64,000 nucleotides of DNA from an uncultured Gammaproteobacteria bacterium (GTDB taxonomy: Bacteria; Patescibacteriota; Microgenomatia; Daviesbacterales; UBA10151), in NCBI GenBank assembly GCA_964459095.1, contig CAYWKL010000001.1, forward strand, positions 21,253 to 85,252, written 5' to 3'. Made by a program: the position numbers and the translations under genes. The notes beneath the pieces are model-generated. The model worked only from the letters and a program-made list of their open reading frames with translations. It was not told the origin of the DNA and did not search any database. Of this stretch, positions 5,525 through 61,535 are shown piece after piece (within the stretch, counting starts at the first letter, position 1; the number at the start of each line of letters is the position of its first letter).

Positions 5525-5531
5525 AAAATAA

Positions 5532-44567: not shown

Positions 44568-47500
44568 TTCTTTTCGAATAAATAATTACATCTTCGTTTT
44601 CAAAAAGAACTTTGTAATTTTCTCCATCTAGAAAACTGTTGTAAAACTTAGGGATATAAATATACTCAATTCCATTGTCAGTAAGAAACGATTTTGCTTC
44701 TCCTTTTGATGCAAAAAATTCTTTTGACTGAATTCTTCTTTTTTTATAATCAATTCCTAAAATCTCATTTTGAACTTCATCTTCCAAAAAAACTGGTTTT
44801 TCAGAAAAAGCTGAAACATATGAAGAGGTATCATATGCGAAAAGGGGCAGCGGGTCAGACAATTTTATTTTCGTAGAAGATTCATAAGGATATGTTAAGA
44901 CAATTCCTTTTTCTTGTTCCTGTAAAAAATCTAACCCTTTAAGTTCACCACTGCTAATATAGGTATGCGGCAGAGGATATAAATAACCTTTTGCAACAGC
45001 TACAGAATTTATTGGTGCTAATATTAGTATGAATCCTAAAAGTAATATATTTAATATTGAAGGTAATTTTAGATAAATAAATGCAACAAAAATCCCTGCA
45101 TAAATGGCAGAGAAATAAAGAAAATAATAAAAAAATTGAATTGTATTCCAAGGAGTTCCTATTTGTATAAAAAGAAGAGGTAAAATAAAAGAAAAAATTA
45201 AAATACAGAAAGTTAAAAATACCAAACTATTTTTTAAATACTTAAGATAAAGTAAACCTATCAAAACAAAAAATCTTACCCCTAGGTTTCCTATAAAAAA
45301 TAAAAATACACCTAAGGATTCAACTAAAAAAAACTTAAACATCTCTCCTCTTTGCAGATACGCAGATCTTGCTCCAGACAATCTTATCCAACCAATTCTG
45401 TCAGGGGTATCAATCATTGTATGAACAAGCCATAAAGGAGCAAATAAAAAGTTTTGAGAAATTTTAAAATTAGGAATAAAAATTCCAAGTGACAAAATCG
45501 AACCCAAAAGTAAAACAAATATCAAATATATTTTTTTTCTAAAGAATTGAAAAATCATTAAAATAAAAACGGATATAAAAATGAGAATCGATGAATAAGC
45601 TTTAAAACCAATTAGCCCCCCCAAAAGCATTCCGCTAACAGCTATCATCCCCCACTGTCTAGTATTTAACTTGCTTATTAGGAGCAAACTGGCAATAACT
45701 AAAATGAATGAGATCGCAAAAGGCGGATTTAAATTAAAAGATATCGATTGATTTGCCCAAAAAGAAGATTCTCCAGATAAAACTCTTTCTTTTATCCAAG
45801 TTACAACCCACCCAAAACTACCTGCAAAATATACAAAGTAAAGTGGAATTAAATATAAGGAAATGGTGTTTTTAATTTTCTCAAATTTTAGGGGTAAATT
45901 ACTTATAAAACTTACTACACCTAATCCCAAAAGAATTGAGAATAAAATAGGAAAGAATCTAAAAACTAAATCCTCTGTTGAAATGAAACTCAAACTGGAC
46001 GTAGTTGCTATTAAAAGATCATATAAATAATGATAGTTTTTTAGAACTTCACCAGAAAAAACGGGATTTTCTGGGGGTAGGCCATTTTTTATTTGATTTG
46101 CTAGTGCAACATGCCATACTCCATCATGACCATTAGGTCCCCAAAAACCCATTCCATAAATAAATGAAAGACCACTTTTAAAGGTGGGCATCACTTGGAA
46201 TATTGTTCCTAAAATTATTAAACCTAATATATATAAATTAGGCATTTTTAGGTTAAATTTATACTTTCCCTTATAAATAATACTTAAAATTAAAAACACC
46301 AAAATATAAAAAAAGAGGAGAAGGTTAAGTTTAAAAAAGCCAGCTATATAAGAGACTAATGTTAAACTCGTTAGTCCAATTACAGTTGATAAGAATACTT
46401 CTTCAACTAAAGTATTGTAGATTTTTGAAATGAACTTTCTAACTATGAAAAGTCCTGGAATAAAAATCCCAATAATAAAAAAGATTGTGAATTTAAGTGA
46501 GTTTAAAATTGCTTGAAGTGGTTTCCAAAGTAATTGCGTATCTAAAACATTTGAATTTTGTTTAGGCTCCAGAGTATTTTTTAAGGCATTTAAAATGACT
46601 CCATCAATTGAAGAAATTTGTTTATCAATGGAAATATCACGAGTCATAAAAGCAATCTCTCTATTATTCCCTGCCTGATTTTTATACGATATTAAAAAGT
46701 CACTGTTAATCCTTTTGTAATTTAAATCACTTATCTTACCTTCATCTATAACTAATTTTTGCCCAAAACTTACTTCATCTAAAACTCTTGTTGCAGATGT
46801 TGCAAAATTTAGTGTCTCACAACTGTGTTTAAAACAAAGTTCTTCTTGATTGTCCAAATATTGTCTAACATCTCTCAAAATTGAACCATCTCTTCCATAA
46901 AACCAGGCAGCTCTATAAAAAACATCCATAAACCAGACAGATTTATTTTCAGTTCCTAGTGGATCATTTGAAACAATTATTTGTTCAGGGGATAGATTTG
47001 GAAAAGTTTTTTTGTAAATTTCAGAGAATTCGCTCATGGTAAGAAAGGTTAGCTTTCTTTTTTTTCGATCTTGATCCAAAACGTCCATTTGCTTCGTATA
47101 CTCCCCTTTATACTTATTCCATGAATATGAATTCTCAAGCCCTACAACTATTTGATTAACCTGATTATATTGTTGATCTAGATATAGACTTGTTATTTTT
47201 TTAAAATAATTAATATCTAAATCATGAAAATCTATATAATCATTTGGTTGAACGCTTAAAGTACTCTCTTCAACTGCTTTTCCATAACCATTCACTGGAT
47301 CCCTTGGGGCCCATTGAGTTATTACAACTGGAATTTTATTTTCTAATGTTTGAGCCGGCAAAAGAGTATGAGTCTTTTGAGGGTAATAAGGATAACCAAA
47401 ATATTGGCCCCAAATTTGATAATTATCAGTTGAGTATTGATCTGAAACTATTAAGGCAGCGCTGATACCGTATTTTTCGTACATGTAATTCAAGGAAAAA

Positions 47501-47982
47501 CTGTCTATAAACCATGCCCCAACTGATTTCGGATAATCACCAAATGTATCTTTGAATTTACTAAAGGAGGCATCTATTAATTTAACTCTATCTTCCTTTG
47601 AATAACCTGTTAAAAATACACTTCCTGCCCAATGCCAATTCCCGGATTCGTTGTATTTGATATTAGCAAGACTAGCAAACTGTGGAGTTACTTCCAGAAA
47701 TACTCCCTTTTCATAACTCCTTTCGTTTTTTAGTAAATTTATTATTTTTGCATTTGTAAAAACATCAGGCCTTATCAAAAATGTTGCAGGAATATTTCTC
47801 TTTTTTAACTCATCAAGCTCTCCTTTAACTGCATCTTCGGGTTTTTGATCTTTAGGATCCCAAAAATCTGCTCCTCTTACGGGATTTACTACAGTAACAT
47901 AGGAGTTAGAAGCTGCAAGAATCTTATTGGGGTAAAGAAGAGTTACTACTAAAGTTAAAACAAATAAAGTTATTTTAAACAT
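44560..47982 (-). CDS. 1140-aa protein: signal peptide + conserved extracytoplasmic domain (shared with 13946..15967) + 'GHDGVWH'-family polytopic membrane domain + C-terminal soluble tail
   Basis: See the two paralogy observations above. N-terminal 'MFKITLFVLTLVVTLLYPNKILAASNS' signal peptide. Confidence 0.5.
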   Translation of the reverse strand: MFKITLFVLTLVVTLLYPNKILAASNSYVTVVNPVRGADFWDPKDQKPEDAVKGELDELKKRNIPATFLIRPDVFTNAKIINLLKNERSYEKGVFLEVTPQFASLANIKYNESGNWHWAGSVFLTGYSKEDRVKLIDASFSKFKDTFGDYPKSVGAWFIDSFSLNYMYEKYGISAALIVSDQYSTDNYQIWGQYFGYPYYPQKTHTLLPAQTLENKIPVVITQWAPRDPVNGYGKAVEESTLSVQPNDYIDFHDLDINYFKKITSLYLDQQYNQVNQIVVGLENSYSWNKYKGEYTKQMDVLDQDRKKRKLTFLTMSEFSEIYKKTFPNLSPEQIIVSNDPLGTENKSVWFMDVFYRAAWFYGRDGSILRDVRQYLDNQEELCFKHSCETLNFATSATRVLDEVSFGQKLVIDEGKISDLNYKRINSDFLISYKNQAGNNREIAFMTRDISIDKQISSIDGVILNALKNTLEPKQNSNVLDTQLLWKPLQAILNSLKFTIFFIIGIFIPGLFIVRKFISKIYNTLVEEVFLSTVIGLTSLTLVSYIAGFFKLNLLLFFYILVFLILSIIYKGKYKFNLKMPNLYILGLIILGTIFQVMPTFKSGLSFIYGMGFWGPNGHDGVWHVALANQIKNGLPPENPVFSGEVLKNYHYLYDLLIATTSSLSFISTEDLVFRFFPILFSILLGLGVVSFISNLPLKFEKIKNTISLYLIPLYFVYFAGSFGWVVTWIKERVLSGESSFWANQSISFNLNPPFAISFILVIASLLLISKLNTRQWGMIAVSGMLLGGLIGFKAYSSILIFISVFILMIFQFFRKKIYLIFVLLLGSILSLGIFIPNFKISQNFLFAPLWLVHTMIDTPDRIGWIRLSGARSAYLQRGEMFKFFLVESLGVFLFFIGNLGVRFFVLIGLLYLKYLKNSLVFLTFCILIFSFILPLLFIQIGTPWNTIQFFYYFLYFSAIYAGIFVAFIYLKLPSILNILLLGFILILAPINSVAVAKGYLYPLPHTYISSGELKGLDFLQEQEKGIVLTYPYESSTKIKLSDPLPLFAYDTSSYVSAFSEKPVFLEDEVQNEILGIDYKKRRIQSKEFFASKGEAKSFLTDNGIEYIYIPKFYNSFLDGENYKVLFENEDVIIYSKRND

Positions 47983-49453
47983 TTCTTAGAGATTTTATAT
48001 CGTTTTTGATTTTGTCTTTTCCAAAAATAAAGATCAATGTAAAATAACAGCTCACCCCTATAAATATTGCCAGTATTAACGAAAAAACCTCTCTTACAAA
48101 GAAAATTGAAAATGTATAAACCAATATTGCCATGAGCAGTGAGGAAATTGTGGGGAGTGCAACAGCCTCTAAAACTTTTATAGCTAAGACTTTTTTGACA
48201 TAAATAATCGTTAGTACAGAGCTGAAAGAAATTACAAATGAGGAAACTGCCACCCCTTGAAAACCTATTACTAAACTAAGTATTGGTGTCAGTATAAAAG
48301 TAAGAACAGTCCACATTACCATTAACTTCAAAGTAATTTTTATTTGCCCTATTGCATTAAGGGTATTTGTAAATGTTGTAGAAATTACAGCCCAATAAGT
48401 CGAGAATGCAAAAAGGTAAAAACTAAAAACAGCGGGTTTCCATTTATCAGAAACAACAAATTCAACTAAAGATGGTAGAATTGCTCCAATCCCAAAAAGA
48501 ACTGGATAAACTAAAAGCGAAGTTATAAAAAGTGATTTTTCAACTAATTTAGATAAATTTTCTTTGTCTTCTTGCAGTCTTGAAAAAGCAGGAAAAGTAA
48601 TTCTTATAACAACATTCATTATTTCAAGAGGTAAAAGTGCCAGTGATTGGGACCATGTAACATATCCAACACCGGATGTTCCTATTATCTTTGCTACAAC
48701 TAGTGGGACAAGACGGTCCTTTGCTAGAGCCAACAAAGTATTTAGCTGGAAAGGCACCCCAAAAGATAAAAGTCTTTTTGCTGAAATTTTATCAACACCT
48801 ATGCCGATTTTAACCGGGGCAACTATATATATTGCTAATACTCCTAAAAATGATCTGGAAAAGGAAGCAATTGTAAAACTCCAAAGATCAAAATTTAAAA
48901 AAACTAAAGCAATCAATAGTCCGTTAAAAACAAATGTTTCAAGAATTTCCACCCCAACAAGAGGTTTAAAATTTAAATTACGCTCAAGCATTACTGAGGG
49001 TATAACTTTAAGAGAAGTTAAAAAAAAGCAGATCCCAAGTACTCTTACCAACCACACCCCATTTTCATCTAAACCATAAAATGACGAAAGAAGTGGGGCT
49101 AAAACAACAATAATAACACTTAGTGCACTAACAAGAGTTTGTTGAATTGTAAAGGTTGTTTTTATATCCTGATGAGTTATCTCATCTTTTTTTTGTATTA
49201 AGGAAGCTCCTAAACCTACATCAGAAAAGAAAGCAAAAAAAGAAATGACTGCAGTAGCTATATTAAAAACTCCTAATGTATCAACAGGTAAAACTCGAGC
49301 AAGGATTATATTTATTGTCAAAAACCCTATTGCTCGAAGAGCAATTTGTCTTGCTGTGAGAGTAATGAAGGAAGATTTTATTCTTCCTTTAATCTCAGAA
49401 AGACTTAAATAAGCAGAGCTTTTCTTAGAATAAGCAGAACTGGATAAATCCAT
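47975..49453 (-). CDS. Wzx-like (MOP-superfamily) oligosaccharide flippase / polysaccharide biosynthesis protein
   Basis: 'ARQIALRAIGFLTINIILARVLPVDTLGVFNIATAV' N-terminus. About 14 helices over 492 aa. Confidence 0.7.
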   Translation of the reverse strand: MDLSSSAYSKKSSAYLSLSEIKGRIKSSFITLTARQIALRAIGFLTINIILARVLPVDTLGVFNIATAVISFFAFFSDVGLGASLIQKKDEITHQDIKTTFTIQQTLVSALSVIIVVLAPLLSSFYGLDENGVWLVRVLGICFFLTSLKVIPSVMLERNLNFKPLVGVEILETFVFNGLLIALVFLNFDLWSFTIASFSRSFLGVLAIYIVAPVKIGIGVDKISAKRLLSFGVPFQLNTLLALAKDRLVPLVVAKIIGTSGVGYVTWSQSLALLPLEIMNVVIRITFPAFSRLQEDKENLSKLVEKSLFITSLLVYPVLFGIGAILPSLVEFVVSDKWKPAVFSFYLFAFSTYWAVISTTFTNTLNAIGQIKITLKLMVMWTVLTFILTPILSLVIGFQGVAVSSFVISFSSVLTIIYVKKVLAIKVLEAVALPTISSLLMAILVYTFSIFFVREVFSLILAIFIGVSCYFTLIFIFGKDKIKNDIKSLRNV

Positions 49454-49480
49454 AAGTTAATTTTAACAAAGAAGCTTAGT

Positions 49481-50752
49481 TCATACATTTCCCAAATTCT
49501 TTTTTGAAAAAAATGAGTAAAAATAATAAGTGCAGGCCCCAACAAAAATACTTTGGATAATACTTCTTGAGAAATTATAATCTAAGCTTATATTTAGAGA
49601 CTGCCAAATACTGACTGAATCATATAAATTAGGCGCAATAGGAGAGAAAAGTCCTATTGTTAGTCCGGGATCAAAAAAGAAAAGGGAAGCAAACCAACTA
49701 AAAAGAATTAAACTTAAAGGAATTAAACTCTCAAATCCTGAACGGATTAGGTGAATTGCCAAAAATGGTGTTACCCATAGTAACCATTGAGGATGAAAGT
49801 GAGTAAAAATAAAAAAAGACAAAAGTATAATTAAAAAAATATTCCATAAGTTTTTTCTCTCAATACCCTTTATAGAGATAAAGATATAAAGAAATATTAA
49901 AAGGGTAGGAAAAAGTAATATTGACTCGCCTCCTGAAATTGGAACTGCGGCGTAAAAACTTTTCAAAGTTTGATTTGCTACTAACGCTGAGTTCTTGAAA
50001 CCACTTGAGCTTAAAAAGGGGAGTATGAGTATTATATAGGGAATTAGCCCTAAGAAAAAAATTCCTGCTCTTTCAAAAAAACTCTTTTTTATTAAGGCTA
50101 AGGATACTAAAAGAAAAAGTGGGTAGATTTTAAAAGCTATACCTAACCCTAAACTTATTGAGGCAAAAGACGTAAATTTTGAATATTGAGAGCGTGCTAC
50201 AAAGTAAATTGCCAAAATTGAAAAAAAAGTAGGGATAATATCAAATTGTCCCATCATATAAGTTGCATAAATATCAATTGGATTAAACATCCAAAACATA
50301 AGTATTAAAAACTTATCCTTTTTTTCTGTAAATAATTTCATTAATAAAAAGGCTACACTTAAATCAAAAATCAAATAGGGTATTTTGAGTGTCAAAAGAT
50401 GCACGAGAAGGGAAGAGGACAAAAGAGTATCTTTAATGTTGATTAAAAAGTTAATTCTAAACTCCTCACCTACAACTAAAGCAAAAGGTGCTCCAAAACC
50501 TCCAAGGAAAAAATATACAGCAGGGGGATAGTTAAAATTAAACTGCCCAAAGGTTTTATTTATTGGATTCCCCTTTGATAAATTTGGAAGATAATCATAA
50601 AAATTTAAAGGATTAGTTTTTGATAAAACATATCCACCTAGATCAAAAATTTGAATATCAGAGTGATAAGTAAAAGGGGAAATAAGCAACCTTAAAAGTA
50701 TACCTACTATTAAAATGGCAGCGAATTTGTTCACTATTAAATCATATAACAA
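49481..50752 (-). CDS. Polytopic membrane protein, possible GT-C-type (DUF2029-like?)
   Basis: Hydrophobic throughout. 'FTYHSDIQIFDLGGY' early loop. I recognise no firm family motif. Confidence 0.4.
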   Translation of the reverse strand: MLYDLIVNKFAAILIVGILLRLLISPFTYHSDIQIFDLGGYVLSKTNPLNFYDYLPNLSKGNPINKTFGQFNFNYPPAVYFFLGGFGAPFALVVGEEFRINFLINIKDTLLSSSLLVHLLTLKIPYLIFDLSVAFLLMKLFTEKKDKFLILMFWMFNPIDIYATYMMGQFDIIPTFFSILAIYFVARSQYSKFTSFASISLGLGIAFKIYPLFLLVSLALIKKSFFERAGIFFLGLIPYIILILPFLSSSGFKNSALVANQTLKSFYAAVPISGGESILLFPTLLIFLYIFISIKGIERKNLWNIFLIILLSFFIFTHFHPQWLLWVTPFLAIHLIRSGFESLIPLSLILFSWFASLFFFDPGLTIGLFSPIAPNLYDSVSIWQSLNISLDYNFSRSIIQSIFVGACTYYFYSFFSKKNLGNV

Positions 50753-52418
50753 CTCTTTTAAATTTAGAACCCAAACTTATGAAAAACAAAGCAGTAATCA
50801 AAGATATAATTGAAACGATATCTAATGCCACTTTCCATGGTATTTCAGTAAAATAAATTCTTATTTTACTTTTCCCTGCTGGAATTTTCACGGTAATTTC
50901 ACCAAATTTTTCACCTGGGATGATTTTAGTTGGATTGTTATTCAACTGTGCAACCCAACCTGGAAAAAAATATTTATTAAATCTTAATATTCCAGAATTT
51001 GAGCTTTCTAGTAAAAATAAGTAATTAAATTCTGAATTCTTTCTTGTATTTATAATCTTAAGATCAGAGTAAGAAACAATAGGATAAAGTTTATTAGGTC
51101 TTACAGAAGTCTCCTTTGGAAGCCTTAGATATTCTTCTTGAGTGTCTTGATATTCAGTATTCGCCTTTGGGTAAGGGATATATCTTTTTAAATAATATTC
51201 GTCAGTTCTCCCAAGAAAATCTTCTGGTCTAAAGTAATTAAAACTTATAAGTATTGTTAGAAATATCAAAATTATTCCCGCTAAGTTAGAGTATTTAAAA
51301 AATTTAAATGGAATTATAAAAAATGGTAGGAAGAATGTTGTTAACATTAAAAAGCGCCAGGGAAACTGAAAATATGGGAAAAACGGAAAATTTGACCAAA
51401 TAAAACTTGACCTAAAATTCATCAAAAAAATTGCTATCAGAAGGGAAAGAATTGCCCAAATAAGAAGAGATTTCTCTGTTAAACTAGTTTTTTTCCAAAG
51501 TGATATTAACAACAATATACCTGTTATAAAGGCAAAAATACCTGGTAAACCGAGGAAAAACGAAATGCCATCATATGGGCCGGGGACTGAGGCACCATAC
51601 CCCCAGTACGGTTTAAAAAGTTGCAAAAGGGAAGGGAAGTGGTCAGCAAAATTAAACACAGTATCGTATTTCATTAACCTGCTCTCTGTTATTGCAGGCA
51701 ACCAAAAATAAATGCTCACTAATAGTCCAAGAAAAAAACCAAAGAAAGTTTCAACTAAAGGTTTTAGGGAAAATCTAACATTTATTAATCTTGTTAAACA
51801 AAATAAAAGAGCAAAAGGAATAAACATATACGCGCTTATATTGTGCGACAAGATAAGACCCCCTACTGATAGTGCACAAATCCCTATCCATTTAAGGTTT
51901 CTTTTTTGTTTTGTTATTTTTATTATTGAAAGAATAATTAAAGGTAAAAAAATAAAGGCAACTGTCTCCCCTATTGCCCCTCTTACATAAATATCTACTG
52001 CTCTGTATGGGGCATATATATAAATTAGTGCTCCTGCAAGAGATAAAAGCCTGCCGACAAACTCTCTAAGTAAAAAAAACATTGCAAATCCTGATGTAAA
52101 CAAACTTAAAGCAAAAACAGCTTTTATACTATCGACAAAGTTTAAGCTTAAAAGATGAAACATCTCACCAAAATAAAAAGGTAAGGGAAAAACAAAATTA
52201 AAAAGAGGGTAACCAAATCCAAAACTTAAATCTGGCACAAATCTTGGTGGAATCTGCCCAGCTCTTAGTGTTCTATCCATCTCAAAAAGCCAAGCAATAT
52301 GCAAATCGTCAGACGCTCCGTAGTACCCGGGTACAAGAAGTGAAAAAGTAGTTGGACTAATTAAAACAAACAGTAAAATCCACCAATATTTATTTAGAAA
52401 ATATTTTTTGCTTTCCAT
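50742..52418 (-). CDS. Polytopic membrane protein, unclassified GT-C-like family with 'DDLxI…RWVPD…GFGYP' motif, tandem paralog A
   Basis: 'PGYYGASDDLHIAWLFEMDRTLRAGQIPPRFVPDLSFGFGYPLFNF'. C-terminal beta-rich domain plus a terminal TM. Confidence 0.5.
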   Translation of the reverse strand: MESKKYFLNKYWWILLFVLISPTTFSLLVPGYYGASDDLHIAWLFEMDRTLRAGQIPPRFVPDLSFGFGYPLFNFVFPLPFYFGEMFHLLSLNFVDSIKAVFALSLFTSGFAMFFLLREFVGRLLSLAGALIYIYAPYRAVDIYVRGAIGETVAFIFLPLIILSIIKITKQKRNLKWIGICALSVGGLILSHNISAYMFIPFALLFCLTRLINVRFSLKPLVETFFGFFLGLLVSIYFWLPAITESRLMKYDTVFNFADHFPSLLQLFKPYWGYGASVPGPYDGISFFLGLPGIFAFITGILLLISLWKKTSLTEKSLLIWAILSLLIAIFLMNFRSSFIWSNFPFFPYFQFPWRFLMLTTFFLPFFIIPFKFFKYSNLAGIILIFLTILISFNYFRPEDFLGRTDEYYLKRYIPYPKANTEYQDTQEEYLRLPKETSVRPNKLYPIVSYSDLKIINTRKNSEFNYLFLLESSNSGILRFNKYFFPGWVAQLNNNPTKIIPGEKFGEITVKIPAGKSKIRIYFTEIPWKVALDIVSIISLITALFFISLGSKFKRVVI

Positions 52419-54072
52419 AAAAATAAATTAAAACTAAAAAGACCATTGTTAAAGCCGTTAGAATATTTGCAACTTCTCTAACTTTCGTATTCTCAAAAAT
52501 ACCCTTTATTTCATACTCTCCCTTTGGTAAATCTATTTCTATTCTTCCTAATAGATTGTTGTTTGAGTGGGTTATTTTTTTACCGTTTTCATAAACTGTC
52601 CAATTCGGAAAATCAAAAACTGGGATTTCTATTTTTGATTCTTTTTTTGCATCCGCATTGAATGAAAAATTGCTCGAGTGATTTGAGAAGTTAAATATTT
52701 TTGCATTACCTGATTTTACCAAAGGAGCGTCCGGGGCTTTTTCTCTTGGTTCATATGCAGTTTTAGGTAGATAATCTAATATTGCGGCTTTTTGTTGTTC
52801 TTCAAATAACTTTCCAGACAACTTTTGAGTATCAGTTAAATTATAAATTCTTTGTGGTCTAAAATATGTCCAGTTTAAAAAAATTACAGCTGATGAAATT
52901 GCGAAAAATATTAAAAGGGAGAACTTTTTTGGAAAAATACTAACAAAGAATCCTCCAAGTAAACTAGCTGAAAAAACTGATAAAGCCAAAAATCTCCAAG
53001 GAAACTGAGTAAATTGCAAAGTGTCAGAAAGCTCCCAAATAAATGCAGATTTGTTATGCATCATAAATACTGAAAATGAAAACATAGTAAGTCCAAACAA
53101 AACAATAAATAGATTTTTAATTCGTTCCCTTTTTCTTTGAAGGAAGAAAAAAATTAGCCCTAATATAGAAAGAGGGGCAAAAAACCACAAAGGCCATCCT
53201 ATTTGAAATGATATGGTATCTTTATCCCCAGGCACTGAAGCACCATACCCCCAGAACCTATCCAGAAAAATTTGCTTAATTGAAACAAAATGGGCCCTGA
53301 AATTTAAATCCCCTATCCTTAAGGAATCTGTATTAACTAAGTCTTTCTCAAAATACGCTGGAATAGTGAAAAATGCTGATAAACCAAATCCTCCCAAAAA
53401 GGCTAAAATTAGAAGTAGAGGATTTTTTCTTTCATAAATAATCCAAAAAATACACCAAAGAAAAATCCAAGGTAAAAATAAAATTGTCATTATTGTATGA
53501 CTGGTAAAAAATGCTCCTAATAATAAAGAACTAAATAAAAAATATTTGTAAGTATTTTTGTCTATTAATTTTAAAAGAATGTAAAAAAGTAAAGGAACTA
53601 GGGCAATTGCAAAACTTTCTGATAGTGCACCTCTTACATAAGTATCTAAAGCCCTGTATGGAGCGAACATAAATAAAACAGCACCTGTTACCCCAGAAAT
53701 TTTTCCCCAAAGATCTTTTACAAAAATATACATCCCTAACGAACCTATTATTAAAGGAATTAAAAAGAGTATTTTTGCTGAAATGATATATCCAAAAATG
53801 AAACTTAAAAATGCACCTACATAAAAGGAGAGAGGGTTGTAATAATTGTAAAGAGGGAATCCATTTCCAAACCCCATATCAGGAACCCATCTGCAGGGAA
53901 TTTGAAAATCAACCAAACATTTTCTCATCTCAAAAAGCCTCATAATTTGAAGATCATCATGGTGAGAAAAATAACCGGGGAGAAGAAGTGGCCAGATTGT
54001 GAGGATAACAAGAGTTGTTAAACAAAAGATCTCCCAGTTTTTAGTAAATCTTTTTTTTAGAGTAGTAAACAT
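52390..54072 (-). CDS. Same family, tandem paralog B
   Basis: 'PGYFSHHDDLQIMRLFEMRKCLVDFQIPCRWVPDMGFGNGFPLYNY'. Confidence 0.5.
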   Translation of the reverse strand: MFTTLKKRFTKNWEIFCLTTLVILTIWPLLLPGYFSHHDDLQIMRLFEMRKCLVDFQIPCRWVPDMGFGNGFPLYNYYNPLSFYVGAFLSFIFGYIISAKILFLIPLIIGSLGMYIFVKDLWGKISGVTGAVLFMFAPYRALDTYVRGALSESFAIALVPLLFYILLKLIDKNTYKYFLFSSLLLGAFFTSHTIMTILFLPWIFLWCIFWIIYERKNPLLLILAFLGGFGLSAFFTIPAYFEKDLVNTDSLRIGDLNFRAHFVSIKQIFLDRFWGYGASVPGDKDTISFQIGWPLWFFAPLSILGLIFFFLQRKRERIKNLFIVLFGLTMFSFSVFMMHNKSAFIWELSDTLQFTQFPWRFLALSVFSASLLGGFFVSIFPKKFSLLIFFAISSAVIFLNWTYFRPQRIYNLTDTQKLSGKLFEEQQKAAILDYLPKTAYEPREKAPDAPLVKSGNAKIFNFSNHSSNFSFNADAKKESKIEIPVFDFPNWTVYENGKKITHSNNNLLGRIEIDLPKGEYEIKGIFENTKVREVANILTALTMVFLVLIYFYGKQKIFSK

Positions 54073-55750
54073 AAAAAAGAAAAACTACAAATACTAAGCT
54101 GGTTAAGGTTAAATAATCTCCGATACTTCTAATGAAAGTATTTGTAAGTCTTGCTTCTATTATATGACGGCCAGGGCTAACATCAAAAGTAATTAAACCT
54201 AAACAAAACTCTTGCCTCCTACAATCATTATAAATGTGTTTTACTTCTTTCCCATCAATAAAAACTTTCATCCCTGGGAAATGAAATAAGGGAAGGCGCA
54301 ATCTAGATTTTTCGAAAACTAAAATTTCTCCTTTCTGCGAACTGGCTTTTTTTACATAACTAATAAAATCAACATCACCACTCATTACCTCGGGCAATTT
54401 CGGAGCTTTTTCTATTGGAGGAAGTTTTGCATAAATTGGTAAGTAGTCAAAAATACTAATTGTTAATTGTTTCTCCCAAAGGTTTCCTGAGAATTTATCT
54501 TTGTCAGAAATATTTAACCATTTTAAAGGTTGAAAAAAGCTTGCGTACATAACAAATGCAATAACTACTGATAGTATCCCAACAACTAAAGAAGCTATAT
54601 TACTTTTTTTAAAATGCAGTTTAGAAATTTGATAAATTGAGATTGCGCTTAATGCGGAGAGTAAAAAAATACTGACTGCATTAAATCTCCATGGAAACTG
54701 CAGGTAAGTTAAGAAGGGAATTGGCGACCAAAGAAAAGAAGATTTTTGGTGCATCATAAAAAGAACCAAAAGTTCAACCATTGATAAAACAAAAGTAAGT
54801 ATTGCCAATTCCTTATTTTTCCTAAAATTTACAATCCCTAGAATTACCGCTAATAAAGAAAGAACCCACTGAACATGCCCGGTTGTTAGGGATAAATCGT
54901 CTCCAGGCCCTAAATAAGAAGATCCAAACCCCCAGTGATTTGAGATAAACAATTGATAAACGTCCACAAAGTGTTGTCTATAATCAAAATACCCTCCTAA
55001 AAGGGACTCTGTATGAGCAAATTGTCTCTCAAATAAAACAGGTAATGTAAAAAAAGCGGCAAGTCCTAAGCCAAAAAGCCCTGACAAACCAATTTTAATA
55101 GTCTCTTTCCATTTTTTTTCTAAAATTATTAAAGATAAAATCCAAATTCCTAAAACAGGAAAAAATATCAAAGACATTAAGTTATGGGTTGTAAGTAGAA
55201 GTGCAACAGATATTGCAAAAAAACAAAAATAATTTAATCCTCTTTTCTTGATTAGCATATAAGATGACCAAAAAAGTAATGGAAAAAAGACTAACGCCCA
55301 AAACTCACTCATTGCTCCCCTTACATAAACCTCAACTGCTTTATAAGGAATATATGTATAAAGAAGGGTTCCAACAAATCCCGGCCAAATACCTAAAAAA
55401 TTTCTCAAAAACAAAAACATTGCAAAAGCACTAAAGACAAACCCCACTGCAAAAAGTATTTTTACAGAATCTATAAATTGGAATCCTATTAAGTGAATTA
55501 TTTCTCCTAGATAATAAACACCTGGAGGGTAATATATAAATTGCGGGTAACCGTACTGATAACCTGGATCAGGAACCCATCTACAAGGAAATTGTAATTC
55601 TTGAAAGCATTTGTCCATTTCAAAAATCCTAAAAGCTTGCAGATCATCTTGCATTGGGAAAAATCCTGGGCGCACCAAGCTATAAAAGGTAGGAATTGTA
55701 AAAATAAAAAGTAAAATCCAAACAAAGATCTTAGGTTTTAAGATATTCAT
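54041..55750 (-). CDS. Same family, tandem paralog C
   Basis: 'PGFFPMQDDLQAFRIFEMDKCFQELQFPCRWVPDPGYQYGYPQFIY'. Confidence 0.5.
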   Translation of the reverse strand: MNILKPKIFVWILLFIFTIPTFYSLVRPGFFPMQDDLQAFRIFEMDKCFQELQFPCRWVPDPGYQYGYPQFIYYPPGVYYLGEIIHLIGFQFIDSVKILFAVGFVFSAFAMFLFLRNFLGIWPGFVGTLLYTYIPYKAVEVYVRGAMSEFWALVFFPLLFWSSYMLIKKRGLNYFCFFAISVALLLTTHNLMSLIFFPVLGIWILSLIILEKKWKETIKIGLSGLFGLGLAAFFTLPVLFERQFAHTESLLGGYFDYRQHFVDVYQLFISNHWGFGSSYLGPGDDLSLTTGHVQWVLSLLAVILGIVNFRKNKELAILTFVLSMVELLVLFMMHQKSSFLWSPIPFLTYLQFPWRFNAVSIFLLSALSAISIYQISKLHFKKSNIASLVVGILSVVIAFVMYASFFQPLKWLNISDKDKFSGNLWEKQLTISIFDYLPIYAKLPPIEKAPKLPEVMSGDVDFISYVKKASSQKGEILVFEKSRLRLPLFHFPGMKVFIDGKEVKHIYNDCRRQEFCLGLITFDVSPGRHIIEARLTNTFIRSIGDYLTLTSLVFVVFLFYVYYSKKKIY

Positions 55751-57276
55751 TTTGCAGGTGTTACTTTAAAAAGTAAAATTGATAAAGGAGGTGCTTTAAA
55801 ACCCTCTGCTTTAGGATAATCTTTAATCAGAGTAAATCCCTCTTCAAAATTAGATAGGTTCTGAGCGTTAGCTACATAAAAAGTGGGAACTTCTTTTGCA
55901 GTTATCCTTAAATCCTTAGGAAAATCCTTATTGCTTGGGGCAATTTTAATATTGGTATTTTTATCCAAATAAATTTGTAGGCCATCTGGCAGAGTCCCGA
56001 ATGTCCCTTGTGCTCCAACAACAATTTCCCTACCGCCTGACTCACTTTTCAAATAATTTGCTATTTCCTTTAAACCATAACCAGCTGTCCAGTCCTCTAG
56101 ATACCCTCTTCTTTCGTTTTTGGGTAAGGGGGTTTTTGAGGGATTAGCTAAAACATAATAATTAAAATAAGCAGTTTGAGGAAGAATTAGTAAAAGAAAG
56201 ATCAAAATCTTAATCAATGATTTTATTTTTAACTTTCTGTCTATTTCAGATATTACCCAGGCCGCTATAACAAGAAGCGGGGGGATTGAAAATAAAATAT
56301 ACCTTGCTGTAAAAGTTCTTAAGAATGCCATTTCAATAAGTAGCGGAATTAGCGCCCAAGCGCAAACAGCTAAAGCACTTCTGTTTCTTAAAACAAAACT
56401 TAAAAAAATTCCTGAAATAATAAGGACCAAAATAGGTATTGTTATTATTTTAGGAAACCAGTCTATTAAATCATTTAAATGAGGTATAAAAGGATCCAGG
56501 GGTCTTGGTATCAATTCCTGGACAGAAAAGATATAGTCTTGATTTCTTAAGCTTAATGAAGAAAATCCTGGCCCAAGTCTTAAAAGATTGTACATCATCA
56601 ACCCAATCAGAATAGAAACAATAAAAAATCCAATTGATTTAAAAAATCTCTTAGTTAAAATTCTTTTTGAAAAATTAAAGGTAAAAAAAACTGCAGGGAT
56701 AGATAAAAAATTAAACATTCCTGGAGTTTTAGTTAAATAACCTCCTCCTAAAATAAATCCTAAAATCAAGCTTAAGTCGAGTCTTGGATTTTTAATAAGT
56801 AAAAGAGAAAAAATTAAGGCCCAAATTGAAAAAAAAGAAAGCATTGAATCAACCAAAGCCATCCTGTCAAAAAAGATCACCATAGGAGTTATAACTATTA
56901 AAAAACCTGCCCAAAGTCCTACTTGTCTGTTAAAAAATTTCCAACCTAAAAATATTGCTCCTAAAAAAGTTAATAAACCTGAAAAAACTGAAAGTATTCT
57001 CCCTGCAAATAAAGGATCTGAAAAAACTTTAAACATTGGCATCAATACCCACATAAAAAGTGGTGTTTTCCCATCAGATAAAGGAAGAAATCGCAAAGTT
57101 GGCTCTGCTCTCATAACTTGTGCCCATCTTATATAGATTGCCTCATCTGCAAAAATTGGCTGAAGAGTTAAATTAGGGAGTCTTAAGACAAAATATGAAA
57201 TACAAAGAAAAAATAAAATAATTAAAGAAAATTTATTTTTTTTAAAAAAATAGCGCATTTTAACTGTATCTTCCAA
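55747..57276 (-). CDS. GT-C glycosyltransferase, ArnT-like (GT83-type)
   Basis: 'LTLQPIFADEAIYIRWAQVM' resembles the ArnT D-E-x-R/Y loop. Polytopic. Sits directly upstream of a DPM1-like GT2. Confidence 0.65.
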   Translation of the reverse strand: MEDTVKMRYFFKKNKFSLIILFFLCISYFVLRLPNLTLQPIFADEAIYIRWAQVMRAEPTLRFLPLSDGKTPLFMWVLMPMFKVFSDPLFAGRILSVFSGLLTFLGAIFLGWKFFNRQVGLWAGFLIVITPMVIFFDRMALVDSMLSFFSIWALIFSLLLIKNPRLDLSLILGFILGGGYLTKTPGMFNFLSIPAVFFTFNFSKRILTKRFFKSIGFFIVSILIGLMMYNLLRLGPGFSSLSLRNQDYIFSVQELIPRPLDPFIPHLNDLIDWFPKIITIPILVLIISGIFLSFVLRNRSALAVCAWALIPLLIEMAFLRTFTARYILFSIPPLLVIAAWVISEIDRKLKIKSLIKILIFLLLILPQTAYFNYYVLANPSKTPLPKNERRGYLEDWTAGYGLKEIANYLKSESGGREIVVGAQGTFGTLPDGLQIYLDKNTNIKIAPSNKDFPKDLRITAKEVPTFYVANAQNLSNFEEGFTLIKDYPKAEGFKAPPLSILLFKVTPAK

Positions 57277-58006
57277 CTAAATCATTTATCCTAATTCTGA
57301 ACATATCATAAATTGCGGCCAGAGCATCTTTTACAACTTGCACTCTTTCTGTATCTACATAATTCCAGGTAACTTCAACTTCTGCAATTTTAAACCCGTA
57401 TTTTTTTGCCAAATATAAAAGTTCTACGTCAAAGCCAGCATTAACTGCCCCACCGCTAAAGTGTACTACTCCCCACTCTTTTTCTATTTTGGGAATAATT
57501 TTATCAATTGAGGATCTGTTAAAAGCTTTAAAACCACACTGCGTATCTGAAAAAGGTAATCCTAAAATTATTCCTCTTAAAACTGAGAAACCCCAAGCTG
57601 CAATAACTCGAATTGCTGGGGCTCCTTTTCTTCCTTTTCTTGATCCGATCACTAAATTAAAACCATCTTCAAACTTAGGGAGAAATTTTTCTATTTCAGA
57701 AATTGGAGTAGCTTGATCCATATCTGTAAAAAGCACAATTTCTCCTTTTGATCTGAGTAAACCTGTTAAAACTGCTTTTGCCTTACCACCATGAGAATTT
57801 TCTATCAACCTAAAGTTTTGATATTTTTTTGTTTCCTCGTTTATAAGTTCTATCGAATCATCACTAGACCCATCATCAACAACAATTATCTCATATGTGT
57901 ATTTCTGATCCTTTAAGTAGTCAAAAACTTTCTCTAAACTTCCTTTCCTTATATTACTTGCTTCATTGTAGGAAGGTATAACAATTGACAGAATTACTTT
58001 TTCCAT
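57260..58006 (-). CDS. GT2 DPM1/ArnC-like polyprenyl-phosphate sugar synthase
   Basis: 'LSIVIPSYNEASNIRKGSLEKVFDYL…IIVVDDGSSDDS…LFTDMDQATP'. Confidence 0.8.
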   Translation of the reverse strand: MEKVILSIVIPSYNEASNIRKGSLEKVFDYLKDQKYTYEIIVVDDGSSDDSIELINEETKKYQNFRLIENSHGGKAKAVLTGLLRSKGEIVLFTDMDQATPISEIEKFLPKFEDGFNLVIGSRKGRKGAPAIRVIAAWGFSVLRGIILGLPFSDTQCGFKAFNRSSIDKIIPKIEKEWGVVHFSGGAVNAGFDVELLYLAKKYGFKIAEVEVTWNYVDTERVQVVKDALAAIYDMFRIRINDLVGRYS

Positions 58007-59503: not shown

Positions 59504-60204
59504 CTTAGGCGGTATTTAATCCAAAATTTGACCAAATCAATAAAAGAATTAATTATGACTTTTAAACTTGCTCCAGTTGGTTTGCCGAAAAGCCTTGGAT
59601 AGTGATTTACACCAATTTGAACAATATTAAATCCATATTTTTCTGCCTTTATAACAAGCTCTGCATTAATCATCCCCCCTCTTGTTGACTCAAGGTGAGG
59701 AATTGTGTCTAGGAATCTCTTACTTACTATTTTAAAACCGCAGTCTACATCCTTGAGCTTTAATCCAAAAAAAATAAAAAGTAAAATTGCCCACCCTTTT
59801 GCGATTACTAAACGAATAAACGGATCATTTCTTTTTATTCTATATCCAATGATTAAATCTGCCTCAAAAGTTTTGTCTATAAATTTAGTTACCTCAGAAA
59901 AATCAAACTGTCCGTCAGCGTCCGTGTATGTAATCCAATCAAATTTGGATTGATAAAATCCAGCCTGCAGCGCAGCACCATACCCTCCATTTCTTTGATG
60001 AATCACCTTAATTTTGTCGTGTTTTTTAGCGTAGTTTTCTGCTTTTTCCCCTGTTTTGTCTCTTGAGCCATCATCAACAACAATTATCTCGTAGTCCTCA
60101 AGGTCAAGATTTTCCAGCACTTTTTGGGCTTTTTCAACAGTTGAAACAATATTCCCCTCTTCATTAAAGCATGGAAAAAAGACAGAAAGCTTTTGAACAG
60201 ACAT
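59500..60204 (-). CDS. GT2 DPM1/ArnC-like polyprenyl-phosphate sugar synthase
   Basis: 'LSVFFPCFNEEGNIVSTVEKA…IIVVDDGSRDKTGEKA…TDADGQF'. The longest ORF extends to 60240. That would overlap the divergent plus-strand gene, so the Met at 60204 is preferred. Confidence 0.75.
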   Translation of the reverse strand: MSVQKLSVFFPCFNEEGNIVSTVEKAQKVLENLDLEDYEIIVVDDGSRDKTGEKAENYAKKHDKIKVIHQRNGGYGAALQAGFYQSKFDWITYTDADGQFDFSEVTKFIDKTFEADLIIGYRIKRNDPFIRLVIAKGWAILLFIFFGLKLKDVDCGFKIVSKRFLDTIPHLESTRGGMINAELVIKAEKYGFNIVQIGVNHYPRLFGKPTGASLKVIINSFIDLVKFWIKYRLR

Positions 60205-60227
60205 GTTTACTATGCTAACATCAAATT

Positions 60228-61373: not shown

Positions 61374-61441
61374 GAATTAAACTAATTTCCTGATCTTCTG
61401 ATACACAAAACTGCTATAGCTTAGCGTTGTATCAGACTTAG

Positions 61442-61466
61442 ATATCACACCCCGGGGGTGTGATAT
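61442..61466. repeat. Perfect inverted repeat ATATCACACCCC-G-GGGGTGTGATAT (12-bp arms) in the only sizeable intergenic gap. Candidate operator or hairpin.
   Basis: Read directly: arm 61442-61453 is the exact reverse complement of 61455-61466. There is no downstream T-run, so it is not a canonical intrinsic terminator. Confidence 0.6.
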
Positions 61467-61500
61467 TAATTGCACGATGTCGCGCATATTGATTATAGTA

Positions 61501-61528
61501 TTGACAATTGGGGTTTTATATTTATAAT
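61501..61528 (+). promoter_or_regulatory. Consensus sigma70-type promoter: TTGACA (61501-61506), 16-nt spacer, TATAAT (61523-61528). It sits 7 nt upstream of the ATG at 61536.
   Basis: Both hexamers are perfect consensus with 16-nt spacing. It would produce a leaderless or near-leaderless mRNA for the 61536 ORF. Confidence 0.4.
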
Positions 61529-61535
61529 TCTGATT

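Follow-up and report, generated by a model that had tools for sequence, protein, structure and literature searches.

Organization of the locus

Three consecutive genes, P3, P2 and P1, lie on the minus strand of a 64,000-nucleotide window, the term used here for the whole stretch of DNA that was analysed (Table 1). The open reading frame (ORF) listing gives exactly the lengths (569, 560 and 558 aa) and the overlaps (32 and 29 nt) that a first-pass annotation had described. The three proteins are related, as that annotation had also claimed: pairwise BLASTP aligns them over nearly their full length at 29.7–35.9% identity (E 1e-60 to 1e-112), a similarity far above chance. P3 and P2 share 35.9% identity (E ~1e-108 to 1e-112, depending on the direction of the search), and P1 is the most divergent of the three.

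Table 1 Position and assignment of features in and around the triplet.
Feature	Position	Strand	Details and basis
Paralogous 1140-aa and 662-aa proteins, oligosaccharyltransferase-like GT-C fold	42579-47982	minus	AF2, Foldseek
MOP/Wzx-type flippase	47975-49453	minus	Polysacc_synt_3 1.4e-55; MOP flippase 6.6e-39
423-aa polytopic membrane protein, downstream of P1	49481-50752	minus	Synteny; no family match
P1, last gene of triplet	50742-52418	minus	558 aa, ATG start; ORF listing
EL1 motif, P1 residues 30-71	52206-52331	minus	PGYY...DDL...RFVPD...GYP
P2 stop/P1 start overlap	52390-52418	minus	29 nt
P2, middle gene	52390-54072	minus	560 aa, ATG start; ORF listing
P2 beta-sandwich, residues 451-526	52495-52722	minus	Eight strands, predicted extracytoplasmic, followed by TM12 (530-552); DSSP of AF2 model
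EL1 motif, P2 residues 32-73	53854-53979	minus	PGYF...DDL...RWVPD...GFP
P3 stop/P2 start overlap	54041-54072	minus	32 nt
P3, first gene of triplet	54041-55750	minus	569 aa, ATG start; ORF listing
EL1 motif, P3 residues 28-69	55544-55669	minus	PGFF...DDL...RWVPD...GYP
PMT_2-type GT-C gene, directly upstream of P3	55747-57276	minus	Pfam PMT_2 3.6e-11
Small GT2, PgfS/ArnC/PpgS/DPM1-like	57260-58006	minus	NCBIfam matches, all below equivalog cut-offs
Second small GT2, polyprenyl-phosphate sugar synthase-like	59500-60240	minus	NCBIfam

The triplet also overlaps its neighbours: P3 shares 4 nt with the PMT_2-type gene upstream, and P1 shares 11 nt with the gene of the 423-aa protein downstream. Translational coupling at the two overlaps within the triplet is probable. 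In related loci the P3/P2 overlap ranges from 4 to 53 nt, and an overlap of 29 nt between adjacent family genes is found in 17 related loci, chiefly at the P2/P1 junction. The P2/P1 overlap of this window contains an A-run; such runs are coding sequence for Lys-rich cytoplasmic tails. A programmed frameshift or slippage joining P2 to P1 was considered and rejected, the overlap sequence being unconserved and holding no in-frame slippery heptamer. A promoter and terminator scan of positions 47000-61500 returned counts no higher than the shuffled expectation.

The triplet is part of a conserved Microgenomates cluster for surface-glycan assembly, which contains many cytoplasmic GT2 and GT4 enzymes besides the Wzx flippase. 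The PMT_2-type gene upstream of P3 is syntenic in most related loci, and the window holds 12 PMT_2/ArnT-type paralogs. The small GT2 at 57260-58006, whose best NCBIfam match is PgfS, far under its cut-off, probably makes a lipid-linked donor; the second small GT2 is 37% identical to it. Altogether six DPM1/ArnC/PgfS-like GT2 genes are present in the window, and one carries a fused GtrA domain. In other genomes, too, the gene of the 423-aa protein frequently lies downstream of P1, and the protein had no match in Pfam and NCBIfam searches. The 1140-aa and 662-aa proteins are paralogs (E 2e-66) with no Pfam match; the model of the 662-aa protein (pLDDT 84) is similar to AglB (Foldseek E 7e-9) and PglB (E 3e-8). 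Comparison by hhalign of the 423-aa and 662-aa proteins with the PF10131 and PMT_2 profiles gave nothing significant (probability 24% for the 423-aa protein against PMT_2, and 7-8%).

Assignment to family PF10131

P2 matches the Pfam family PF10131 (PTPS_related) with 40.5 bits, above the gathering cut-off of 26.4, and P1 (18.2 bits) and P3 (17.3 bits) score below it. Most of their orthologs do match the family: 15 of 23 in the P1 class (best E 1.8e-20) and 18 of 22 in the P3 class. A profile search with the triplet proteins retrieved 16,847 cluster representatives (50%-identity clusters, E<=1e-3), and PF10131 is carried by nearly all of the 120 homologs listed, the best 120 of 2080. The proteins are thus members of a large catalogued family and no new kind of enzyme, and their earlier description as unclassified, possibly a new GT-C clade, is not supported.

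Of the 621 positions of the PF10131 model, 1-341 are matched by P2, 2-311 by P1 and 1-313 by P3, so that none of the three matches it at full length. The model begins at about residue 75, which places TM1 and the DD...RWVPD loop outside it. Because the match of P2 is limited to positions 1-341, the C-terminal half is unlike that of typical family members. This half forms a different module, made up of a beta-sandwich and a terminal TM helix, and the triplet therefore constitutes a divergent PF10131 subfamily. It has the membrane core (TM2-TM11) in common with typical members and lacks a PTPS domain.

Further searches delimit the assignment. No NCBIfam model matches P1, P2 or P3, and none of the three matches Pfam PMT_2 or PMT above the cut-off; weak PMT_2 matches are found in 12 of 23 P1-class and 8 of 22 P3-class orthologs. 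Profile comparison nevertheless detects homology between the triplet family and the PMT_2 paralogs of the window over TM2-TM7 (hhalign probability 97%, E 6e-11). When profiles A1 and A2 were searched against the sequences of PDB chains, the outcome was either nothing or chance matches at E=1 to phosphomevalonate kinase. Family PF10131 is a listed member of the GT-C clan CL0111, with function unknown (PMC7801869). Our literature search for PF10131/PTPS_related retrieved no functional study, characterised member, solved structure or published motif analysis, and a search for GT-C enzymes or oligosaccharyltransferases in Patescibacteria found no functional study. Donor, acceptor and even catalysis are therefore argued by analogy in what follows.

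Predicted fold

The AF2 model of P2 (pLDDT 86, pTM 0.88) has 11 TM helices, an eight-strand beta domain (residues 451-526) and a terminal TM helix (530-552), giving 12 TM helices in total. This agrees with the architecture proposed at first sight, about 11 helices followed by a beta-rich domain and a last TM helix, and hydropathy of all three proteins, each with a C-terminal hydrophobic segment, is in accord. The count falls in the range of 7-13 of the GT-C superfamily, with its conserved N-terminal membrane module. By the positive-inside rule both termini of each protein are predicted to be cytoplasmic (N-in/C-in), which puts all the conserved motifs on the outer face. Class-specific Cys pairs are confined to loops predicted to be outside: P1 lacks the pair of the first outer loop, and a pair is conserved in the beta-sandwich of the P3 class.

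In the Foldseek search of the P2 model against the PDB, every match that spans the membrane domain is a GT-C enzyme. The top match is STT3 (8age_A, E 4e-4), and AglB (3waj), ArnT (5ezm), Pmt4 (9i5k), EmbC, PglB (5ogl), AftA, DPY19, ALG12 and AftD are also found; transporter folds appear at chance level. The clan membership, the profile similarity to PMT_2 and these fold matches agree in identifying P1, P2 and P3, on the predicted structure, as GT-C enzymes, as had been suspected. A confident match to a non-GT family, the observation named beforehand as counting against this identity, was sought and none was found, so the identity stands in this respect. Locally, the beta-sandwich weakly resembles accessory domains with a beta-sandwich fold in glycoside hydrolases (Foldseek ranks 25, 32 and 38-47), and it is a candidate acceptor-binding (CBM-like) module.

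STT3 and AglB use diphosphate-linked donors. Since they are the best fold matches and PF10131 is listed without a function, the triplet might be thought to use diphosphate-linked oligosaccharides, by polymerase, ligase or oligosaccharyltransferase chemistry, or to have a non-catalytic role in transport or as a scaffold. We regard this as very unlikely. TM-scores of the P2 model with STT3, AglB and PglB are just ~0.35-0.46, although some homologs carry a precomputed STT3 Pfam match. The regular expression WWD[YWFN]G, for the WWDYG-type motif, has no match in P1, P2 or P3, whose WG[YF]G lies at about residue 273 in the TM7-TM8 loop, outside any C-terminal domain, and the AglB-like C-terminal globular domain is lacking. 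The neighbouring 662-aa protein resembles oligosaccharyltransferases much better than P2 does (E 7e-9 compared with 4e-4), a DPM1-like GT2 fused to a P3-like protein (see below) points to monophosphate donors, and the chance-level transporter matches weigh against transport.

Candidate active site

The motifs cited in the first-pass annotation are in the first extracytoplasmic loop, directly after TM1 (EL1). They are PGYY30, DDL37, RFVPD59 and GYP69 in P1; PGYF32, DDL39, RWVPD61 and GFP71 in P2; and PGFF28, DDL35, RWVPD57 and GYP67 in P3, which places the Asp pair at residues 37/38, 39/40 and 35/36, respectively. Other blocks common to the three are PY.A..YVRGA..E, H192, WG[YF]G and QFPWRF.

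Conservation was assessed in a family alignment of 131 sequences (130 cluster representatives and P2). In P2 numbering, D39 is kept in 126, R61 in 130, G71 in 127 and P73 in 130 of the 131, and the second Asp, D40, in just 77. The motif had been called invariant; it holds for the three proteins and only partly for the wider family. The polar residues that are invariant in the family and present in P1, P2 and P3 comprise D39, R61 and D65 in EL1, R147 and E152 in the second outer loop, Q356-F-P-W-R360 in the fifth, and K100, H192 and E242. They are found in 122-131 of the aligned sequences (D65 in 107) and, with the exception of E242, are at least 90% conserved within each ortholog class.

In the model of P2, D39 caps the N terminus of a helix (41-54) right after TM1 (13-30). 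The proposed catalytic Asp of published GT-C structures likewise comes after the first TM helix (PMC11127046), and a DxD-type motif is located in an outer loop of GT-C enzymes (PMC8035078). From its place in the topology D39 is a candidate catalytic base, and R61 is a candidate phosphate ligand. The presence of a GT-C-like acidic loop, pointed out in the first-pass annotation, is thus borne out. The accompanying statement that the loop falls outside known signatures is correct in that it is no documented signature; the arrangement itself, D-[DE] followed by an amphipathic helix, is that of the PMT_2 paralogs of the window, in which the acidic pair is 'DE' rather than 'DD'. By contrast, RWVPD, YVRGA..E and QFPWRF are specific to the triplet family, and the C-terminal domain differs from that of PMT_2/ArnT proteins (CAZy GT39/GT83-like).

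Orthology and gene fusions

In the tree the triplet proteins fall into three pure orthologous clades (33 P1, 37 P2 and 37 P3 sequences), with 47-61% identity between orthologs and ~31% between paralogs. Of 80 Microgenomates genomes at species level, about 38 carry overlapping genes in the order P3-P2-P1. The pure clades and the recurring order indicate that the duplication is ancient. A recent triplication within this genome is ruled out by tree and synteny; of the proposal that the genes were triplicated in situ, what survives is that the copies stand in tandem in a single slot of a conserved cluster. At 13 positions residues are fixed inside each class yet differ between classes.

Fusions between family members and GT2 enzymes also occur. 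In cluster representative P0145 a P3-like protein is fused to a homolog of the GT2 at 57260-58006 (DPM1-like), and in P0124, P0130, P0131 and P0189 rhamnosyltransferase-like GT2 domains are fused to P3-like proteins; in these natural fusions the GT2 sits at the cytoplasmic N terminus of the P3-like protein. Uninterrupted ORFs of ~790-860 aa, seen by ORF length, are present in loci L029, L034, L041, L046 and L079. The cluster representative P0121 (1093 aa) is an in-frame fusion of a P2-like and a P1-like protein with a short cytoplasmic linker, and P0122 contains two family copies.

Pmt1-Pmt2 and EmbA-EmbB are hetero-oligomeric GT-C complexes, and P1, P2 and P3 could similarly be subunits of one complex that carries out a single step or a processive reaction. 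The conserved order and the start/stop overlaps would fit stoichiometric co-translation, P0121 and P0122 join family copies in one chain, and fold matches of P2 were deposited as dimers, namely a Pmt4 homodimer and an EmbA-EmbB complex (entry titles; PMC12705809). We nevertheless find this arrangement improbable. The slot holds between 1 and 5 copies in related genomes, also in other orders (P3-P1-P2, P2-P2), so a fixed heterotrimer is no property of the family; all three proteins have the complete set of candidate catalytic residues, which is unexpected for scaffolding subunits; and the P2-P1 fusion is known from one cluster and could reflect a frameshift error.

Proposed function

We favour, with a probability of roughly 0.6, the reading in which P3, P2 and P1 would be three non-redundant, co-expressed GT-C glycosyltransferases of family PF10131 that act in the surface-glycan cluster by the following mechanism. 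Nearby DPM1/GtrB-like GT2 enzymes would load a sugar on polyprenyl phosphate at the cytoplasmic face, and the product would be flipped across the membrane. Each PF10131 enzyme would bind the lipid-linked sugar at the outer leaflet, with the phosphate held by basic residues. D39, where the first loop helix begins, would act as catalytic base, and the enzyme would pass the sugar on to an acceptor outside the cytoplasm. The likeliest acceptor would be the glycan that the adjacent Wzx flippase exports, whether in its lipid-linked form or after attachment; the beta-sandwich, held at the membrane through TM12, may position it. Differences between the paralogs would concern the sugar, the linkage or the acceptor position, and the steps they catalyse would be successive or parallel.

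Transfer outside the cytoplasm from polyprenyl-phosphate sugars is suggested by the gene context, namely the DPM1-like GT2 genes, the natural GT2 fusions, the Wzx flippase, the many PMT_2 genes and an oligosaccharyltransferase-like protein. A lipid-monophosphate donor is proposed because GT2 genes are nearby and GT2 domains are fused to P3-like proteins. Non-redundancy is proposed because of the three pure clades, the recurring order and the 13 class-specific positions. As to the donor link, the GT2 genes beside the triplet might instead serve the neighbouring PMT_2 enzymes, and some of the fused GT2s belong to a type whose usual task is to lengthen lipid-linked glycans, not to make monophosphate donors.

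The logic of GT2, flippase and GT-C is established for modification of LTA, WTA and O-antigen (PMC8035078, PMC11127046). In Bacillus subtilis and Staphylococcus aureus, YfhO (PF09586) uses C55-P-GlcNAc to decorate lipoteichoic acid with GlcNAc and works in concert with CsbB, a GT2, and GtcA, a flippase; this multi-component mechanism is the model adopted for the triplet (PMC8035078). YfhO belongs to the same clan, and the genomic logic is shared as well, in that a GT-C enzyme is paired with a small GT2 that makes polyprenyl-phosphate sugar; the sequence similarity is weak: P1 scores 19.6 bits with PF09586, below the cut-off of 28.5, some orthologs reach E 2e-9, and P2 and P3 have no match to this model. 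YfhO proteins are also longer (835-position model), and no GtrA-only flippase gene adjoins the triplet. To our knowledge, teichoic acids are not documented in the Patescibacteria host.

Sets of GT-C paralogs that act on one glycan are known from the ER lumen (ALG3, ALG9 and ALG12) and from mycobacteria (EmbA, EmbB and EmbC; AftA-D), the Emb paralogs being encoded in tandem and partly heteromeric. The triplet may be analogous to these sets as diverged, catalytically intact paralogs using lipid-monophosphate sugars outside the cytoplasm. ALG12, EmbC and AftA are among the fold matches of P2; they show no specific relationship to the triplet in sequence, and the functional likeness is one of gene context, not of membership.

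Another function, PMT/TMTC-like protein O-glycosylation, is in our view quite unlikely. Single sugars would then pass directly from polyprenyl-phosphate donors to Ser/Thr residues of proteins that are secreted or exposed at the surface, for example S-layer proteins or pilins, with separate protein targets for each paralog. This function would accord with the homology to PMT_2-type genes and the PMT_2 matches of orthologs, with PgfS as the best match of the neighbouring GT2, and with the oligosaccharyltransferase-like proteins of the cluster, which hint at protein glycosylation. However, the triplet proteins have no MIR or TPR acceptor-binding domain, their beta-sandwich resembling carbohydrate-associated modules instead; a Wzx flippase with many cytoplasmic GT2 and GT4 enzymes is typical of oligosaccharide or polysaccharide building; and no acceptor protein was found.

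More speculatively, and at rather long odds, the favoured mechanism could be placed in an ER- or archaeal-like lipid-linked oligosaccharide pathway conserved across Microgenomates, with the triplet as its outer-face extension stage. Cytoplasmic GT2 and GT4 enzymes would assemble a lipid-linked glycan, Wzx would flip it, and the PF10131 trio and the PMT_2 paralogs would extend it outside from polyprenyl-phosphate sugars, a step functionally equivalent to ALG3/9/12 and ALG6/8/10. The oligosaccharyltransferase-like proteins at 42579-47982 would then attach the glycan en bloc to protein or to the cell wall. Were this correct, PF10131 would gain its first function, and glycan assembly in ultra-small uncultivated bacteria would be seen to follow a eukaryote-style division of labour.

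General knowledge of GT-C enzymes is unchanged by the triplet. The locus offers a testable hypothesis for PF10131, with candidates for the catalytic Asp and the phosphate ligands partly beyond the Pfam model, lipid-monophosphate donors from neighbouring or fused GT2s, and three conserved specificities; its practical value lies in improved annotation and in targets for glyco-engineering. In small-genome Microgenomates, surface glycan assembly is encoded in a conserved one-strand array of ~50 kb.

A triplet of GT-C proteins from a known family

P1, P2 and P3 are tandem minus-strand genes, transcribed in the order P3-P2-P1, and the ORF listing bears out the overlaps of 29 and 32 nt reported in the first-pass annotation. 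Their products align over near-full length with pairwise identities of 29.7-35.9% (BLASTP, E 1e-60 to 1e-112) and, judged by sequence, are collinear paralogs. The loop motif noted earlier is present in every copy at residues ~28-73 (PG[YF][YF], DDL, R[FW]VPD and G[FY]P), and multiple alignment of the paralogs (A1) adds the common blocks PY.A..YVRGA..E, WG[YF]G.S and QFPWRF, as well as an invariant His (H192; P2 numbering is used throughout). The AlphaFold2 model of P2 (41 sequences in the alignment; pLDDT of 86 and pTM of 0.88) has the architecture that had been read from the sequence: 11 TM helices, followed by a beta domain of eight strands (451-526) and, last, a single TM helix (530-552). 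The N and C termini and the short inner loops of P1-P3 are rich in Lys and Arg, which places both termini in the cytoplasm and therefore all of the conserved motifs and the beta domain outside. A Cys pair (C52/C60) is present in the first loop of P2 and P3 and absent from P1; the beta domain of P3 contains a further conserved Cys pair.

P2 matches the Pfam family PF10131 (PTPS_related) with 40.5 bits at a gathering cut-off of 26.4 bits, and P1 and P3 score under the threshold (18.2 and 17.3 bits; P1 also scores 19.6 bits with YfhO). In the ortholog scan, PF10131 is matched by 15 of 23 P1-class proteins (best E 1.8e-20) and by 18 of 22 P3-class proteins (best E 5.6e-13), with PMT_2 and YfhO as secondary matches. 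No NCBIfam model matches P1, P2 or P3. A word-indexed search with P2 yielded 2,080 homologs; PF10131 is precomputed in nearly all of the best 120. Where these carry a name, it is '6-pyruvoyl-tetrahydropterin synthase-related protein', 'glycosyltransferase family 39 protein' or hypothetical, and the organisms are Microgenomates, Daviesbacteria and Woesebacteria among them. The profile of P1-P3 retrieves 16,847 representatives of 50%-identity clusters at E<=1e-3, of which 5,149 pass the stricter limit of E<=1e-30. The proteins are thus not unclassified, as had been thought. Nor are they a new GT-C clade, since PF10131 is already catalogued, with 'function unknown', in the GT-C clan CL0111 (PMC7801869); our literature search for PF10131 found no functional work. 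Within this GT-C family, which is known but uncharacterised, the triplet represents a subfamily that is divergent and rich in CPR members.

The assignment to GT-C itself holds, on the Pfam match of P2, on the alignment of the triplet family with the window's PMT_2 paralogs (hhalign probability of 97%, E 6e-11, TM2-TM7) and on the fold. All PDB entries that cover the membrane domain of the P2 model in Foldseek are GT-C enzymes (yeast and human STT3, AglB, ArnT, Pmt4, EmbC/EmbB, PglB, AftA, DPY19, ALG12 and AftD), with modest scores (best E 4e-4, TM 0.35-0.46). The beta domain alone gives weak matches to beta-sandwich accessory domains of glycoside hydrolases. No match to a non-GT family was found. 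PDB sequence searches with the triplet profiles returned nothing, so a solved structure is absent for this family.

The first loop and conserved residues

The PF10131 model starts at about residue 75 of P1-P3, so that TM1 and the entire DD...RWVPD...G[FY]P loop lie outside the curated model, which is why the motif could not be placed at first reading. In the P2 model, D39-D40 caps the first loop helix (41-54) at its N-terminal end, immediately past TM1. The proposed catalytic Asp of GT-C enzymes also lies after the first TM helix (PMC11127046; PMC8035078), and in the window's PMT_2 paralogs the corresponding position is taken by 'DE' with a helix behind it (FADEAIY, LGDEGRD and YGDELT are examples). 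Across 131 aligned sequences (130 representatives and P2), H192, P358 and W359 are invariant (131/131); R61, R147, E152, Q356 and R360 are each kept in 130, D39 in 126, E242 in 124, K100 in 122, D65 in 107 and D40 in 77. With the exception of E242, these residues are at least 90% conserved within each of the three ortholog classes; at the level of sequence, therefore, none of P1-P3 resembles a dead enzyme.

An ancient duplication

A scan with one genome per species (GTDB) yielded 554 relatives, from which 80 loci were kept. These loci carry one to five copies of the family (family HMM on ORFs), and ~38 of the 80 have orthologs in the P3-like, P2-like, P1-like order on one strand, mostly overlapping (best-hit assignment). 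The 29-nt overlap of adjacent copies recurs in 17 loci, in most cases between P2 and P1. The window proteins share 47-61% identity with their orthologs, compared with ~31% among the paralogs. A neighbour-joining tree built from 188 sequences resolves the P1, P2 and P3 classes as pure clades with 33, 37 and 37 members, respectively, and the proteins of one- or two-copy lineages fall outside them. In more distant Microgenomates this slot, flanked by a PMT_2 gene and Wzx, is occupied by a single copy. The clades, the synteny and this single-copy slot indicate an ancient tandem duplication whose three products have since been kept as distinct genes; the earlier proposal of triplication in situ is right about tandem duplication at one slot, and the three separate ortholog clades show that it was not recent.

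Three ancient classes with intact candidate catalytic residues argue for three specificities. A rival explanation, that P1, P2 and P3 make up a hetero-oligomeric complex, would account for the conserved overlaps and for P0121, a homolog in which P2-like and P1-like copies are joined in frame, but sits poorly with the varying copy number. Five further cluster representatives from other genomes carry a GT2 fused N-terminally to a P3-like PF10131 protein: DPM1/PgfS-like in P0145 and rhamnosyltransferase-like in P0124, P0130, P0131 and P0189. Such fusions to cytoplasmic GT2 enzymes confirm the cytoplasmic N terminus of the family and tie it to these enzymes. Uninterrupted ORFs of ~790-860 aa, of unconfirmed GT2 content, occupy the family slot at five other loci (L029:7569-10004, L034:7485-9983, L041:7593-10010, L046:9050-11638 and L079:9305-11674).

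The surrounding glycan cluster

The triplet lies in a ~50-kb array given over to glycan assembly, which is remarkably much DNA for a Microgenomates genome, at ~1 Mb, to spend on this purpose. The array holds 11 PMT_2/PMT-type GT-C genes and cytoplasmic GT2 and GT4 genes; totals for the window are 12 PMT_2/PMT-type GT-C, one PIG-V-like, three PF10131, ~10 GT2 and three GT4 genes and two MOP flippases. Five small GT2 genes resemble polyprenyl-phosphate sugar synthases, with best NCBIfam matches to PgfS, ArnC, PpgS, dolichyl-phosphate hexose transferase and AglJ, every one scoring well under its equivalog cut-off. The block is syntenic across Microgenomates in the order GT2-GtrA / PMT_2 / GT2 / PMT_2 / GT2 / PMT_2 / P3-P2-P1 / (423-aa protein) / Wzx / 1140-aa / 662-aa / PMT_2 / GT2 x3 / GT4.

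Genes and regions of the cluster, in window coordinates
Feature	Position	Strand	Remarks
Array	9396-60240	minus	nearly gap-free
P1	50742-52418	minus	ORF, 558 aa, ATG start
P2	52390-54072	minus	ORF, 560 aa, ATG start
P3	54041-55750	minus	ORF, 569 aa, ATG start
423-aa polytopic membrane protein	49481-50752	minus	overlaps P1 by 11 nt; no Pfam/NCBIfam match
MOP/Wzx flippase	47975-49453	minus
MOP/Wzx flippase	16750-18003	minus
1140-aa protein	44560-47982	minus	upstream of 662-aa gene; no Pfam/NCBIfam match
662-aa protein	42579-44567	minus	no Pfam/NCBIfam match
PIG-V-like GT-C	17991-19241	minus	within array
Twelfth PMT_2/PMT-type GT-C	60228-61373	plus
GT2-GtrA fusion	62386-63567	minus	one of five small GT2; just outside array
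Acetyltransferase-GT2 fusion	5532-6653	plus	one of five small GT2; just outside array
Sixth synthase-like GT2	29467-30216		grouped with the other five by BLAST similarity only
Nucleotide-sugar modification operon	856-6653	plus
911-aa protein	6666-9401	plus	cluster edge
DUF5667 protein	9396-9935	minus	cluster edge
ORF	89-832	plus	no Pfam match
ORF	10713-11627	minus	no Pfam match
ORF	13946-15967	minus	no Pfam match
ORF	27382-28101	minus	no Pfam match
495-aa ORF	36875-38362	minus	no Pfam match
ORF	61470-62375	plus	no Pfam match

The gene for the 423-aa protein often directly follows P1 in other genomes. Its product has invariant H30 and D32 near the N terminus ('YHSDIQIF') and an invariant 'H.H.QW' block. 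It may be another unrecognised GT-C, but its hhalign probability with PMT_2 is only 24%.

The 662-aa protein is predicted to adopt an AglB/PglB/STT3-like oligosaccharyltransferase fold. Its AlphaFold2 model (pLDDT of 84 and pTM of 0.89) matches AglB (7e9s_A, E 7e-9), PglB (3rce_A, 3e-8) and human STT3A (6s7o_A, 5e-8) in Foldseek, and the C-terminal globular part separately matches the C-terminal domain of AglB-S2 (3vu0, probability of 0.99-1.0). The best 120 of its 673 homologs carry no Pfam domains. The protein has a WWDYG-like 'NWYDTGY', the Asp of which is not strictly conserved. The C-terminal half of the 1140-aa protein is its paralog (E 2e-66). Both are membrane proteins with a shared 'GHDGVWH' motif, and the 1140-aa protein has in addition an N-terminal soluble domain of ~480 aa. 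Our literature search found no paper tying oligosaccharyltransferases to Patescibacteria, and the 662-aa protein may be more novel than the triplet.

Such neighbours bear on the chemistry of P1-P3. A diphosphate donor, as a rival reading would have it, is disfavoured by the lack in P1-P3 of the WWDYG motif of STT3, AglB and PglB, and by the better oligosaccharyltransferase-like candidates near the triplet. Taken with Wzx, the numerous GT-C genes and the glycosyltransferases of the cytoplasm, these candidates suggest an ER-like or archaeal-like pathway that would build, flip, extend and then transfer en bloc, although we consider this unlikely.

A proposed role for the triplet

By analogy, the best-supported reading for the triplet is the multi-component scheme of GT2 lipid-sugar synthase, flippase and GT-C transferase, which is established elsewhere (PMC8035078; PMC11127046). 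The analysis shows the fold class, topology, conservation, orthology, synteny and fusions; the donor, acceptor, catalytic residues and order of action of P1-P3 are what we infer. A polyprenyl-phosphate sugar would be bound at the outer leaflet by each PF10131 enzyme and passed on to an exported glycan; D39 would serve as base, and the invariant Arg and Lys residues would contact the donor phosphate. The tethered beta-sandwich would help to keep the acceptor in place, in the manner of the carbohydrate-binding modules of Emb, AftD and GT136 enzymes (PMC11127046). Direct protein O-glycosylation by P1-P3 is a rival to this scheme. The multi-component reading provides a testable functional hypothesis for PF10131, alongside a conserved Microgenomates glycan cluster around the triplet.

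Further features of the locus

The GT2-GtrA gene, which carries a GtrA/DPMS transmembrane domain and thus pairs a polyprenyl-phosphate sugar synthase with a putative flippase module, is conserved at the head of the syntenic block in many genomes. Other genomes also have the 495-aa ORF in their syntenic cluster. The nucleotide-sugar modification operon encodes a GFO/IDH/MocA oxidoreductase, a hexapeptide acetyltransferase, two DegT-type aminotransferases, an NAD epimerase/dehydratase and the acetyltransferase-GT2 fusion, a gene content that suggests a product containing a di-amino, N-acetylated sugar. At the cluster edge lie the 911-aa protein, which has an F5/8 type C (discoidin, galactose-binding-like) domain, and the DUF5667 protein; these may be lectin-like proteins that are secreted, or glycoproteins that act as partners in the pathway. 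Many MAG records (TPA assemblies) titled 'uncultured Gammaproteobacteria bacterium' or 'Pseudomonadales' carry the Microgenomates-type cluster with 50-55% identity and the same synteny (L005, L007-L012, L014, L016, L018 and many more), as do single records titled Bdellovibrionales and Clostridia; these taxonomic titles are probably wrong.
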